Sequence record: OM475427
DNA length: 49,197 bases
Direction: 5' to 3' (one strand)
DNA from: Escherichia phage D2
Below the pieces are notes generated by a model. The model had not been told where the DNA came from. It did not search any database and saw only the letters and a program-made list of their open reading frames with translations. Made by a program: the position numbers and the translations under genes. Shown piece by piece: positions 32,970 through 36,552 of the stretch. The first letter of the stretch is position 1, and each line of letters starts with the position of its first letter.

Positions 32970-33386
32970 TTATACCTCTGAATCAATATCAACCTGGTGG
33001 TGAGCAATGGTTTCAACCATGTACCGGATGTGTTCTGCCATGCGCTCCTGAAACTCAACATCGTCATCAAACGCACGGGTAATGGATTTTTTGCTGGCCC
33101 CGTGGCGTTGCAAATGATCGATGCATAGCGATTCAAACAGGTGCTGGGGCAGGCCTTTTTCCATGTCGTCTGCCAGTTCTGCCTCTTTCTCTTCACGGGC
33201 GAGCTGCTGGTAGTGACGCGCCCAGCTCTGAGCCTCAAGACGATCCTGAATGTAATAAGCGTTCATGGCTGAACTCCTGAAATAGCTGTGAAAATATCGC
33301 CCGCGAAATGCCGGGCTGATTAGGAAAACAGGAAAGGGGGTTAGTGAATGCTTTTGCTTGATCTCAGTTTCAGTATTAATATCCAT
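32970..33386 (-). CDS. gam: Gam, RecBCD inhibitor
   Basis: 138 aa, lambda Gam ([76 protein letters not shown]...). Confidence 0.9.
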
Positions 33387-33484
33387 TTTTTATAAGCGTC
33401 GACGGCTTCACGAAACATCTTTTCATCGCCAATAAAAGTGGCGATAGTGAATTTAGTCTGGATAGCCATAAGTGTTTGATCCAT
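33341..33484 (-). CDS. kil: Kil (FtsZ-targeting host-killing protein)
   Basis: 47 aa, [47 protein letters not shown], matching lambda Kil; overlaps the gam start by 46 nt as in lambda. Confidence 0.85.
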
Positions 33485-33549
33485 TCTTTGGGACTCCTGG
33501 CTGATTANNTNTNNNNAANGNGTTTCCATCCGTCACGTAATTTACGCAT
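33451..33549 (-). CDS. cIII: cIII-like protein (N-terminally different from lambda; interrupted by n bases; boundaries approximate)
   Basis: Minus-strand ATG preceded by AGGAG, reading MRKLRDGWK..., matching the lambda cIII core (ITRKLRDGWKRLIDILNQ). An n run (33508-33521) interrupts the reading. Confidence 0.45.
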
Positions 33550-33824
33550 AAAAACTCCTGCCCGTAAGCTGGGCTGCTGAACATATAGAGACTTCTGCGC
33601 GTATTCAGGCGGTGGATGGCCGCCGGTTGTCATAACTAAGCCGCCTCGTTGAAGCGACTGAGGTATGAGGTGTTGAGTTGATTTCAGCTGGTCACACCGA
33701 CGTTCACGCGTCCGCTTCACCCCTCGCACTCCCCGGAGCCTGCTGAAATTCAAGCTGCGGATCTAAGCGGTCATCGCAACGGTGAATCAGGTGATTGCCG
33801 TATCGTTGTGTTGTTGCGACATGG

Positions 33825-33945
33825 TGATAATAGCTATTGTTATTGGCTGTATCAATACTTATTGCTATTGATTGATGTGTTTTGATATTAACTGTTTGAT
33901 AGCAAAAAGAATTAATTTTGTGACTTGTATCGCATAGCGATAACT
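33825..33945. promoter_or_regulatory. Putative leftward early promoter/operator region (OL-like)
   Basis: Contains GCTATTGTTAT (33833-33843) and TTGCTATTGAT (~33862-33872), motifs that recur in the cI-cro intergenic region, plus palindrome TATCGCATAGCGATA (33928-33942). Lies between the cIII-like gene and the cargo cassette. Confidence 0.35.
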
Positions 33946-33990
33946 GAAGGGAGGATGTGGTGGTTTTTCGAACGGTTTGTGTGATGAGGG

Positions 33991-34020
33991 GACAAAAGAA
34001 AACCCGGCACGGTGGCCGGG
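33991..34020 (-). terminator. Rho-independent terminator downstream of the ASCH gene
   Basis: On the minus strand, hairpin CCCGGCCACCGUGCCGGG followed by UUUUCUUUUGU, immediately after the stop of ORF 34025-34402. Confidence 0.5.
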
Positions 34021-34024
34021 ATTC

Positions 34025-34402
34025 TTACGCAGGTAGGTAAAGATATGATTGTGGTGGCTTAATATTACTACCTAGAGCAGAGATAGGAATTGGTTCTTTA
34101 TATCTTTCCACTTCACCAATTTTTATTGCGTAGGCCTTTTCTCTACCTGAATAATATGAGTCATAAAATTGCTTAGAAATACCTGCGTGTTTTTCCGTCT
34201 TTTTCCAAAGAGATTCCGGTTCGTCACTTAGTATTGATTCAATACGGAATTGACCAACAACTTTACCTAATGGCATCGTGGCATAAATAACAACGGTGCT
34301 AATTTGCGGATTTTTGAATATACCTTTACGAAACTCGAACCGCTTTGTTCCGTTCAATATTTTTTCTGCAAACTCAGGCTTAATGGATAATAAAACTTTC
34401 AT
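34025..34402 (-). CDS. ASCH-domain protein (125 aa)
   Basis: N-terminal G-x-K-x-x-E-x-R motif (NGTKRFEFRK) characteristic of ASCH/PUA-like domains; AT-rich; overlaps the upstream gene by 23 nt. Confidence 0.6.
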   Translation of the reverse strand: MKVLLSIKPEFAEKILNGTKRFEFRKGIFKNPQISTVVIYATMPLGKVVGQFRIESILSDEPESLWKKTEKHAGISKQFYDSYYSGREKAYAIKIGEVERYKEPIPISALGSNIKPPQSYLYLPA

Positions 34403-35453
34403 TTATCTTGCCTAACTCGATGATCTTTAAGAACTGCTCATTTGTGAGTTTAAAGTGACTCCATCGGAATGCACGCGAACCATTTAGCCCCACATGATCT
34501 ATTAAAATAGCACGATTGGGTCTCTTTGGCAAAGACAGATTGTATGTGAATCTTATAATGAAAGGGTATCGACGTTCTTTATAGATTTTTCTGAGTTCAT
34601 CTTCAGAAAATACGCTAAAACGAATACAATAGTCTACAAAACTATCTTCGCTTAAAAATTCAGAAATATTTTTTACGCTCTCAACTACACATAATGTACT
34701 GGCTACAGAACGATAGCGAGCTGGCCCTTTTTTGTCTCCGGTTCTATAGATGACAATGATATCTCCTCTTTTCATTCCCATCACAGAACGCATTCCACAT
34801 ATGTAAATTTTATGAATGCTGTTAGCATGGGATATATCTTTGACAATATCTGGTGATTCATTTACAAGTTTTGAATCAGGGAATAGTCTAGTGTGATATT
34901 CGGGATAAATCGCCAGTAAATATTTGTTGGCCCTTGATGTCATTATTCGAGGGTAATCTAATAAAATATCACCATAAGGCTCATGCAAAGACCTCGCATA
35001 TACAAACTCTTTCCCGTTATGTGTTTCTTTTTCACCATGAATGTAAAATCCGTACGTTTGGAAAAGTTTTATTAGATGGACGTGTTTGTCGAAAACAGTA
35101 ACATAAATATCATCAGATTTTGATGAAAATGCATGGTCAAACGCTTTTTTTAGAAATCGTTGTCCGCGAAGGGTGCCTTTAGATTCAAATTTGAATGTTC
35201 CTATCTTTAGATGACGTCCTGGTGGGAGCGCTGGATTAATGTCATTTGCATCATCATTTTCTTTTAGATACATAAAACCTTCGATTTTATGCTTGTCATC
35301 ATAGAGCACATAAGCTGATTCTCCTTCTCTGGCTTTTTTTTCTAACCAAAGAGGAAACTCTTTATAATCTTTTTTTAAAGAGTCAAAAAATGGGTCATTG
35401 TGATCAAAATCAGAGAATTTCTCATATTTTAAAGTATCCATTAAGTTCTCCAT
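34380..35453 (-). CDS. Hypothetical 357-aa protein, possible GNAT-like N-terminal region, unknown C-terminal domain
   Basis: Long AT-rich ORF directly downstream of cI on the same strand. Weak acetyltransferase-like motif (KGTLRGQRFLKKAF..VTVFDKHVHLIKLFQTYGF). C-terminal half has a D..ExK-like pattern (GDIIVIYRTGD..LCVVESVK). No confident family assignment. Confidence 0.45.
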   Translation of the reverse strand: MENLMDTLKYEKFSDFDHNDPFFDSLKKDYKEFPLWLEKKAREGESAYVLYDDKHKIEGFMYLKENDDANDINPALPPGRHLKIGTFKFESKGTLRGQRFLKKAFDHAFSSKSDDIYVTVFDKHVHLIKLFQTYGFYIHGEKETHNGKEFVYARSLHEPYGDILLDYPRIMTSRANKYLLAIYPEYHTRLFPDSKLVNESPDIVKDISHANSIHKIYICGMRSVMGMKRGDIIVIYRTGDKKGPARYRSVASTLCVVESVKNISEFLSEDSFVDYCIRFSVFSEDELRKIYKERRYPFIIRFTYNLSLPKRPNRAILIDHVGLNGSRAFRWSHFKLTNEQFLKIIELGKINESFIIH

Positions 35454-35521
35454 TCTAAAATGAATAATTAAGTTGTTTTACTGAATGAGCACAATGCCCG
35501 GTTGATAATTTTTAATTGGTA

Positions 35522-36214
35522 CTATCCATGCTTCCTATACGTCTGCGGCATGCTCCCAATAACTTTCCCGAAGATAAATACCCGGTTCATCTCATCTTTC
35601 TCGATCGGGTCCCACGGTGAGTAGCTTTTGTTATCAGAGATAACCAGCAGCTTATCCTTCATCATTTGCAGGCGCTTTACATGGGCTGTGTCGTCGTACA
35701 GAAACGCATAGATACCATCACCGTCGAAAGATTTAACCGTGATATCAACGAATAGAAGATCACCAGGTTCAATCGTTCCTGACATGCTGTCACCGCGTAC
35801 GTTAATGATGCGGATATTTTCTGCCTTCCTACCATCGAACATGTGACGAGCATCGTCAAACGAGTACTCAACCGAGCGTAGAACTTCTACAAACTCACGG
35901 TTGATGACTCCCGGCCCGGCACTCACTTCTATATCAAGAACGTCAATCTTGAAGTATTTGGGATGGTTGGCAGTAGGCTTCCCTAATTGTTGACCGTCAT
36001 TTCTCATCGGGCCTATGCCTGATGAGAGCCACTCTGTTCGAACACCCAATGCATTAGCTATTTCAACAATTTTTGTTGAGCCGCGCGCGTTGCCGCTTGT
36101 CAGTCTCCAGATTGTGGGTTGAGCTACGCCAGACGCCTTTGCAAGAGCGCCTTGAGACATTCCAGATTGTTCCATCGCTAGGTTTAAGCGATCAGCAAGA
36201 GTTTCTTTTTTCAT
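35522..36214 (-). CDS. cI: CI-like prophage repressor (HTH plus LexA/S24 peptidase-like domain)
   Basis: N-terminal HTH (MSQGALAKASGVAQPTIWRL) and C-terminal S24-like domain with GDSM (Ser) and VKRL (Lys) motifs. ATG at 36214 preferred; the ORF track extends to a TTG at 36250. Divergently placed against cro. Confidence 0.85.
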   Translation of the reverse strand: MKKETLADRLNLAMEQSGMSQGALAKASGVAQPTIWRLTSGNARGSTKIVEIANALGVRTEWLSSGIGPMRNDGQQLGKPTANHPKYFKIDVLDIEVSAGPGVINREFVEVLRSVEYSFDDARHMFDGRKAENIRIINVRGDSMSGTIEPGDLLFVDITVKSFDGDGIYAFLYDDTAHVKRLQMMKDKLLVISDNKSYSPWDPIEKDEMNRVFIFGKVIGSMPQTYRKHG

Positions 36215-36324
36215 AAGTTTTAATTTATACGCTTGCGTATTGATGGTCAAAACACGTTTTGCTATTGTTATGATTAATACGCATTGCTATTATTTATTCA
36301 TTGTAATACCAATAGGAATTAATA
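36215..36324. promoter_or_regulatory. Putative OR/PRM-PR operator-promoter region between cI and cro
   Basis: Perfect palindrome ATACGCTTGCGTAT (36227-36240), related ATACGCATTGCTAT (36277-36290), and GCTATTGTTAT (36261-36271) / TTGCTATTAT (36284-36293), shared with the OL-like region. Confidence 0.45.
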
Positions 36325-36552
36325 ATGACAAATCAAACCATTCAACTCGCAATCAGTATTACAGGTAGTCAAAAACGACTGGCAGATCTATGCGGTGTAG
36401 CCCAGCCCACTGTTTGGCGTTGGCTACACGGTGGCGGAATTGATGCCCGCTATGTAATGAAAATTGTCTCAGCCACTGGTGGAAAGATTAAACCAGCAGA
36501 TATTCGTCCCGACCTCGCACCATTGTTTAACGCGAGTAATTCTGCCGCCTAA
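36325..36552 (+). CDS. cro: Cro-like HTH regulator (YdaS family)
   Basis: 75 aa, HTH (SQKRLADLCGVAQPTVWRWLHGG), divergent from cI. Confidence 0.7.
   Translation: MTNQTIQLAISITGSQKRLADLCGVAQPTVWRWLHGGGIDARYVMKIVSATGGKIKPADIRPDLAPLFNASNSAA

Follow-up and report, generated by a model that had tools for sequence, protein, structure and literature searches.

What fills the slot of the lambda rexAB genes in Escherichia phage D2, and what might it do for the lysogen? In lambda, the slot between the repressor gene cI and the terminator and leftward operator/promoter (OL/PL) holds rexAB, an exclusion system. Here, we describe the cassette of two minus-strand genes, gevT and gevA, that lies in this slot in D2 (sequence record OM475427; the window analysed is the whole stretch of 49,197 nucleotides (nt), and all positions count from its first letter). 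Judging from profile and structure matches, the cassette is almost certainly a member of the two-gene module of a GNAT-EVE protein and an ASCH protein (PDC-M11; GevT/GevA). It is already known and not a new discovery, the class having been catalogued, named and described since 2013/2020. Its domains and relatives indicate that it probably has a role in conflict, of the toxin-antitoxin (TA) type, and on balance we favor, as the best overall explanation, a lysogen-expressed, TA-like exclusion module built on a nucleic-acid-directed acetyltransferase and placed in the rexAB slot.

Both proteins match PDC-M11 of PADLOC from end to end, GevT with PDC-M11A (E = 2.1e-133, profile positions 10-356 of 357) and GevA with PDC-M11B (E = 6.8e-52, profile positions 1-122 of 132); PDC-M11 itself is only a candidate system. 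PADLOC reports PDC-M11 in an E. coli O157:H7 strain, and the cassette was found in O157:H7 genomes. Both proteins also match PHROGs of unknown function, with GevT matching phrog_6345 at 1e-186. GenBank record PV340567.1 (Escherichia phage PhiR47_2) annotates the pair as 'GevT toxin' and 'GevA antitoxin', and the PhiR phage panel goes back to Brenes & Laub 2025, cited as reference 25 in PMC13190303. A literature search, which did not cover Brenes & Laub 2025, turned up no publication describing the name Gev, which is most simply read as GNAT-EVE. In operons of the (PIN)-GNAT-EVE class an ASCH protein is almost always present and an AAA_17 ATPase is frequent, PIN-less GNAT-EVE forms are common in (gamma-proteobacterial) prophages, and the operons are predicted to be TA systems (Bell et al. 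2020, BMC Biol 18:159, PMC7641849; here and below, those parts of the article that were available). The D2 cassette is like these operons in its GNAT and EVE barrel and its ASCH gene, with an occasional AAA_17 gene, and both the published class and the relatives of the cassette include PIN fusions and a PIN-less prophage form. Nothing essential differs between the cassette and the class as set out in the available text, the EVE call being weak here by sequence and based on structure. A TIR-fused form (P0124) and fusions of ASCH at either end were seen here and go unmentioned in those parts of the article. In D2, a predicted N-terminal GNAT, a predicted C-terminal EVE domain, an ASCH gene in the same operon and matches to both PADLOC hidden Markov models occur together. 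A preliminary description made from the sequence alone had taken the genes to be uncharacterised and without a confident family, which has to be given up for a pair present in PADLOC and PHROGs and described in 2013/2020; its guess of a defence module or a toxin/antidote pair agrees with the candidate status in PADLOC, the GevT/GevA label and the prediction in the available text of PMC7641849.

GevT has no match in Pfam, whose GNAT models do not match it directly, while its first 150 residues show a match to a PHROG labelled 'acetyltransferase' and its homologues are named 'N-acetyltransferase' by NCBI. An AlphaFold2 model was built from 118 homologues, with a mean predicted local distance difference test score of 86.9 and a predicted template modelling score of 0.84, and Foldseek searches with this model returned GNATs, ZmASCH (3.4e-5) and the EVE domain of human THYN1 bound to 5-methylcytosine (5mC) DNA (6e-5). 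Because of these matches GevT is, as modelled, an N-terminal GNAT acetyltransferase fold joined to a C-terminal EVE/ASCH-like PUA barrel. The barrel is divergent in sequence: strand 1 and helix 1 alone align with the ASCH partner, and Pfam EVE is weak, appearing in 4 of 49 homologues at E ≤ 0.1. The domain call rests on structure because the profile-profile match of the C-terminal half to the ASCH partner covers only 29 columns (E = 5e-4, probability 32%). A D..ExK-like pattern had been pointed out in this half, and a PD-(D/E)xK nuclease was rejected for it: aligned homologues have K, R, T or H at the lysine of VESVK, the predicted fold is a PUA-like barrel, and the top structural matches are ASCH/EVE barrels, with no nuclease among the matches listed.

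Acetyltransferase toxins of the GNAT fold are familiar from type II TA systems, where they are single-domain proteins of about 170 amino acids (aa) with an RHH/DUF1778 antitoxin upstream; TacT, AtaT, ItaT and KacT reportedly acetylate aminoacyl-tRNA (Yeo 2018, as cited in PMC7641849). GevT, in contrast, is 357 aa long and includes an EVE domain, and its ASCH partner is encoded downstream. No sequence-level relation of GevT to the GNAT type II toxins was found, and Pfam gave no RHH/DUF1778 match in the cassette. A single-domain type II toxin was rejected as the identity of GevT on its two domains and its downstream ASCH partner.

GevA is, by its sequence, a canonical ASCH protein of the type of ZmASCH, a single-stranded RNA (ssRNA) ribonuclease. 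It matches Pfam ASCH at 2.5e-8 (35 bits against a gathering threshold of 21.2), and the GxKxxExR signature picked out at first reading is the motif G18-T-K20-R-F-E23-F-R25, in which G18, K20, E23 and R25 do not vary across 34 homologues. Its nearest solved relative, ZmASCH (5guq/5gus), is a full-length homologue, found at 8e-16 with the single sequence and 7e-18 with a profile, and itself matches PDC-M11B at 3e-29. In vitro, ZmASCH of Zymomonas mobilis (PDB 5GUQ) degrades ssRNA in a Mg-dependent manner, and its Tyr47, Lys53 and Ser128 are important for activity (PMC5615036). Tyr47 and Ser128 correspond to the invariant Y40 and S119 of GevA, and Lys53 aligns with the invariant G46, next to the variable K47. 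A further match of GevA (2.8e-15) is to the C-terminal domain of PRK12279, an NCBIfam entry named '50S ribosomal protein L22/unknown domain fusion protein', and the fusion hints at ribosome-associated activity of this ASCH subfamily.

ZmASCH was considered as a GevA orthologue in the same module and rejected, for it is without the GNAT-EVE neighbor that GevA has. Upstream of the ZmASCH gene, in the same orientation and in every case, lies the gene of a 375-aa protein of no known family (L095-L097:3825-4952), unrelated to GNAT-EVE, in a conserved chromosomal setting (argJ, secA). The 375-aa protein could be a different partner of ZmASCH-type ASCH proteins.

A second characterised ASCH protein, YqfB, is an amidohydrolase for N4-acetylcytidine (ac4C) with a Lys21-Thr24-Glu74 triad, in which Thr24 is the nucleophile (PMC6972931). 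The profile of 34 GevA homologues did not detect YqfB (1te7) at E ≤ 10. Through the shared GxKxx(T/E)xR motif, we take Thr24 to fall at the position of Glu23 in GevA. The earlier analogy with a YqfB-like eraser of N4-acetylcytidine was dropped, the threonine nucleophile being replaced by the invariant Glu23, the profile missing 1te7 and the nearest relative being ZmASCH.

The two genes travel together. The sample of loci comprised 80 species-level loci from many phyla and the PhiR47_2 locus, and in all 81 the ASCH gene stands beside the GNAT-EVE gene. It overlaps the GNAT-EVE 3' end in about 74 of the 80 species-level loci (by 16-19 nt in tblastn coordinates), abuts it in a few others, and lies nearby on the opposite strand in three Vibrio/Photobacterium loci; the overlap suggests translational coupling. 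Each gene is carried by 275 of 5,426 complete E. coli genomes (about 5%), always together (275 of 275), and nearly all of these copies are at least 99% identical, O157:H7 strains included. The only two interrupted copies among sound E. coli assemblies are insertion sequence (IS) insertions, IS1 in strain E138 (NZ_AP022351.1, 2036030-2037855) and IS5/ISKpn26 in strain MSI001 (L090:1793-4054). Both hit the GNAT-EVE gene, with the ASCH gene undamaged in each strain, an asymmetry that is expected of a toxin and is suggestive here. A frameshifted copy in SCU-485 was dropped as evidence, adjacent genes in that assembly being frameshifted too.

Relatives of GevT are numerous (1,425 clusters at 50% identity match it at E ≤ 0.001) and often fused. 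Of 149 cluster representatives, 39 are extended at the N-terminus, by a PIN-like domain of about 147 aa in which acidic residues are conserved, by ASCH plus a PIN-like domain (about 265 aa together), by ASCH without PIN, or by TIR; a C-terminal ASCH is present in one. The PIN call is based on weak Pfam PIN_3/PIN_4 matches in about 10 of 34 members together with conserved D6/E14/D108/D114. P0124 (532 aa) is the TIR-GNAT-EVE fusion (TIR_2, 1.7e-13).

Temperate elements of three kinds carry the module. Besides lambdoid phage, these are Klebsiella P2/186-like prophages (gene order CI, 355-aa unknown, GNAT-EVE, ASCH, integrase) and Vibrio filamentous prophages (Rep, Zot ... GNAT-EVE, ASCH, AAA_17, with the module at the prophage end). 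Repressor genes lie upstream of it in lambdoid and P2/186-like prophages and in others. Many other loci are chromosomal, with obvious phage genes absent alongside. Recurrent neighbors are an AAA_17/AAA_18 P-loop protein (11 loci), a 355-440-aa protein (10 loci) and prophage repressors (11 loci). The AAA_17/AAA_18 gene, kinase-like and with a product of about 175 aa, is immediately adjacent to the pair in 11 of the 80 loci and likewise among the Vibrio filamentous prophages (for example L024:9431-9946, L063:9431-9970 and L086-L089:9444-9953); the product matches PADLOC VakA weakly (2e-7). The gene of the 355-440-aa protein adjoins the pair in 10 of the 80 loci (L082:6909-7976, L008:6903-7976, L041:9391-10485, L074:9474-10649 and others); the protein has no match in Pfam, PADLOC or PHROG, is not a GNAT-EVE paralogue, and is unmentioned in the available text of PMC7641849. 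Five loci have a gene for a second small GNAT of 165-228 aa after the ASCH gene (L071:9455-9952, L077:9444-9944, L067, L075 and L060), and this protein matches PDC-M11A weakly. The Klebsiella P2-like prophages also vary at a second site, flanked by the portal gene and replication gene A (L083:1-593, L085:249-1310), where ThsB_TIR or PIN_12 genes are found depending on the strain; it resembles a second cargo hot spot.

In the lambdoid phages the site of the cassette is an exchangeable slot, bounded by the cI stop codon on one side and the terminator on the other and filled with different cassettes in phages whose cI is the same. Phages PhiR30_1 and PhiR70_1 are 95-97% identical to the window in the left flank up to 34020 and in the right flank from 35520, which includes cI and the rightward operator (OR), with the cI/OR stretch itself 96-97% identical; homology with sister phages that bear other cassettes restarts exactly at 34020. 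PhiR5_1 has an annotated HipA toxin/HipD antitoxin pair in the slot, and PhiR47_2 has the same cassette as D2 (99% nucleotide identity), likewise between cI and kil/gam. The slot of PhiR30_1 and PhiR70_1 holds two or three unrelated genes of uncharacterised function; the alternative cargo families phrog_6603 with phrog_9194, and phrog_16879 with phrog_19114, are uncharacterised candidates. In the cassette stretch the window is near-identical to phages Lambda_4C10, 4A7, 1W and 3W. Lambda rexA-rexB occupies the same slot on the same strand, after cI and before the terminator and OL/PL, and would presumably share with the cassette its lysogenic expression from PRM. The rexAB genes have no sequence relation to the cassette, for which the only PADLOC families matched at E ≤ 1 were PDC-M11A and PDC-M11B; the membrane-protein character of RexB is not predicted for either cassette protein, for which no dedicated test was made.

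The repressor gene beside the slot is annotated cI in related phages and probably starts at ATG 36214, a reading from the sequence and from the 690-nt cI annotation in PV340567.1. The -10 element of the PRM-like promoter ends 7 nt ahead of this ATG, a spacing from which we infer a likeness to the leaderless transcript of lambda PRM. Promoter-like sites are not in excess in the region (8 found, 8.8 in shuffles), and because of this the PRM assignment rests on position and on the analogy with lambda PRM; at the same frequency, no internal promoter for the ASCH gene stood out from the shuffled sequences. Operator-like repeats (family D1), including an exact 11-mer (D9), are common to 33830-33870 and 36238-36292, and TTGCTATTR occurs three times in the 49-kb window, always in the OL/OR-like regions, against 0.77 expected. 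The terminator after gevA consists of CCCGGC-loop-GCCGGG with a TTTTCTTTT tail (34020-34003 on the minus strand), its stem 6 bp, all GC, and its loop 6 nt, and lies 5 nt past the ASCH stop codon. It is the sole terminator-like site within 33600-36500, and because the scan of that interval found none between cI and gevT, co-transcription of the cassette with cI is plausible. An Rfam scan of 33500-36500 gave nothing credible. The gevA ATG sits within the final codons of gevT, and the cassette has a G+C content of 0.34-0.38, against 0.47-0.54 in its flanks. For gevT, the start at ATG 35441 (353 aa) is more likely than ATG 35453 because it has GGAG 6 nt upstream and because homologues start there; the equivalent start is used in a 620-member cluster of identical sequences and in all homologues. 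Much of the preliminary description is thus borne out for this region (features in Table 1): two AT-rich, overlapping minus-strand genes downstream of cI, in the position of rexAB and unrelated to rex, bracketed by operator-like motifs shared between the OL and OR sides, closed by a rho-independent terminator and plausibly expressed with the repressor. The survey it called for, of what related lambdoid phages carry between cI and PL, brought out other cassettes, HipA/HipD among them.

Table 1. Features of the cassette and its surroundings in the immunity region of phage D2 (window positions)
Feature	Coordinates	Strand	Basis or remark
OL-like operator repeats and PL-like promoter TTGATA-17-TATTAT	33827..33870	. 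(promoter -)	repeat search, promoter scan
Intrinsic terminator closing the putative cI-gevT-gevA unit; left slot edge	33993..34020	-	hairpin scan
gevA-like gene, stand-alone ASCH protein, 125 aa	34025..34402	-	open reading frame (ORF), Pfam ASCH, PDC-M11B
gevT/gevA overlap, 23 nt	34380..34402	-	sequence read directly
gevT-like gene, GNAT-EVE protein	34380..35453	-	ORF, 357 aa from ATG 35453; 353 aa from ATG 35441
Predicted EVE/ASCH-like (PUA-like) beta-barrel domain of GevT	34383..34961	-	about residues 165-357
Predicted GNAT acetyltransferase domain of GevT	34974..35441	-	about residues 5-160
cI-type repressor gene, 230 aa from probable ATG 36214	35522..36214	-	HTH_3 and Peptidase_S24
PRM-like promoter TTGACC-17-TAAATT	36222..36250	-	consensus scan; candidate promoter for cI-gevT-gevA
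OR-like operator repeats and PR-like promoter TTGTTA-17-TATTAT	36238..36293	. (promoter +)	repeat search, promoter scan

How such a module might exclude phages can be put together from these parts. In the lysogen, cI, gevT and gevA would be transcribed together from the PRM-like promoter, and GevTA would work as a TA-type exclusion or abortive-infection module. GevT would dock by its EVE domain on a nucleic acid, most likely RNA or tRNA and possibly with a modified base, and its GNAT domain would acetylate the bound substrate or an attached aminoacyl group, so that growth stops. GevA would restrain GevT by binding to it or by acting on the same RNA, and a superinfecting phage would upset the balance of GevT and GevA and release GevT from this check. 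We lean to RNA or tRNA on four indirect grounds: because the relative of the ASCH partner is a ribonuclease, because the ASCH subfamily is fused to L22, because PIN ribonuclease domains recur in relatives and because GNAT toxins set a precedent. RNA-directed acetylation is tentatively put forward as the toxic act, a step that we hold to be possible and also doubtful.

Several points weigh against a TA-like exclusion module of this kind. As of 2020 no GNAT-EVE/ASCH module had been experimentally characterised, according to the available text of PMC7641849, and PDC-M11 stands in PADLOC as no more than a 'candidate' system. Proposals for the substrate differ, with acetylation of DNA bases proposed by Iyer et al. 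2013 (as cited in the available text of PMC7641849) and the same text suggesting that modified-DNA binding or control of expression may be the task of ASCH, and that GNAT-EVE may alternatively target aminoacyl-tRNAs. The GNAT domain of GevT is without the canonical Q/RxxGxG/A loop (it has GTLRGQR) and without a direct Pfam GNAT match. A toxin-first gene order and covalent toxin-ASCH fusions are atypical for type II TA systems with a labile antitoxin, and a ZmASCH-type protein occurs in Zymomonas without a GNAT-EVE neighbor, so the ASCH subfamily also stands independently. The IS asymmetry amounts to two events against none in a gene three times longer, and is not significant. Co-transcription with cI, plausible as it is, is read from the DNA sequence.

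The best surviving alternative, which we consider unlikely, is a cooperative sensor-effector defence, in which the EVE and ASCH domains would read modified bases in phage DNA or RNA and the GNAT domain (PIN or TIR in relatives) would fire. It would account for the many relatives with ASCH fused to GNAT-EVE at either end, unusual for a labile antitoxin, for the TIR and PIN effectors added in others and for the match of the EVE-like fold to THYN1 bound to 5mC DNA. The available text of PMC7641849 points the same way, with ASCH-HsdS and HTH-ASCH fusions, an association of PIN-GNAT-EVE with type I restriction-modification and ASCH inferred to be a modified-DNA binder. It sits poorly, however, with the toxin/antitoxin label in GenBank, with IS insertions in the GNAT-EVE gene only, with an ssRNA ribonuclease, not a DNA reader, as the nearest characterised ASCH protein, and with a phage version that is without a nuclease or other DNA-directed effector.

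Within the TA-like reading itself, a more specific version would have GevT acetylate a modified base selected by the EVE domain, in tRNA or rRNA or in hypermodified phage DNA, and GevA serve as an antidote that works enzymatically, by cleavage or repair of the acetylated RNA, and not just by binding; we regard this version as quite unlikely. If it were true, GevT and GevA would form an immune module of a writer and a remover, equivalent to DarTG but based on acetylation. In DarT-DarG, a TA system used for phage defence, the toxin gene comes first and the partner enzymatically reverses a nucleic-acid modification. The likeness of gevT-gevA to that system lies in the toxin-first order and possibly in a partner that counters the modification, whereas the folds and the chemistry differ, DNA ADP-ribosylation in the one and putative acetylation in the other, and the eraser role of GevA is hypothetical.

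An addiction module that stabilises the prophage is improbable in our judgement. Loss of the prophage or of its immunity region would then kill or arrest the cell through a longer-lived toxin, and any anti-phage effect would be incidental. The TA-like GenBank label, the tight linkage to cI within one putative transcription unit, the HipA/HipD variant of the slot and the occurrence on three kinds of integrated temperate element would all fit; yet integrated prophages are not lost by segregation as plasmids are, and the same slot in lambda holds an exclusion system. The TIR- and PIN-fused relatives, and the association with defence islands given in the available text of PMC7641849, also point to conflict with invaders.

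Decidedly improbable is counter-defence in favor of the phage, whereby GNAT-EVE would act on modified DNA or RNA and help the phage to withstand restriction or other systems of the host, perhaps by means of controlled toxicity. Such a role has been proposed for prophage GNAT-EVE, in contrast to host PIN-GNAT-EVE (PMC7641849, available text), and PIN-less GNAT-EVE is phage-associated in the loci examined here too. The genes, however, appear to lie on the repressor (lysogenic) transcript and not on an early lytic one, their boundaries are the same as for the exclusion and TA cassettes of sister phages, and many loci are chromosomal and without obvious phage genes. A non-conflict writer/eraser pair for acetylated nucleosides such as ac4C, in which GNAT-EVE writes and ASCH erases as part of lysogenic-conversion metabolism, is very improbable, for although YqfB is an ASCH amidohydrolase for N4-acetylcytidine (PMC6972931) and a GNAT adjoins an ASCH here, the nucleophile Thr24 is replaced by the invariant Glu23 of GxKxxExR, the GevA-family profile misses YqfB, and housekeeping fits poorly with a family so patchily distributed, so mobile and fused in places to TIR or PIN.

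A TA-like exclusion module thus remains our preferred reading of a family that is common and mobile, with members in many phyla, in several prophage types and in about one in twenty complete E. coli genomes. Standing in a lambda-like immunity region, a type understood better than any other in biology, and with natural isogenic controls (the same cI with other cargo), the D2 cassette offers a tractable and sharply delimited model. It is also a convenient locus for asking whether acetylation of RNA or DNA serves phage exclusion, a chemistry that has been a prediction since 2013/2020.

Two further observations concern the surroundings of the slot. Homology of the window to PhiR47_2 and PhiR5_1 ends inside cI at about 36078, and OR differs; at this mosaic joint the C-terminal S24 part of the repressor is shared by the window with PhiR47_2 and PhiR5_1, and the N-terminal DNA-binding part is different. 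To the left of OL/PL, a run of n at 33500-33530 falls within the ORFs 33341-33529 and 33505-33753 (both on the minus strand), where a gene for an N-like antiterminator would be expected, so that such a gene is unreadable across the run.

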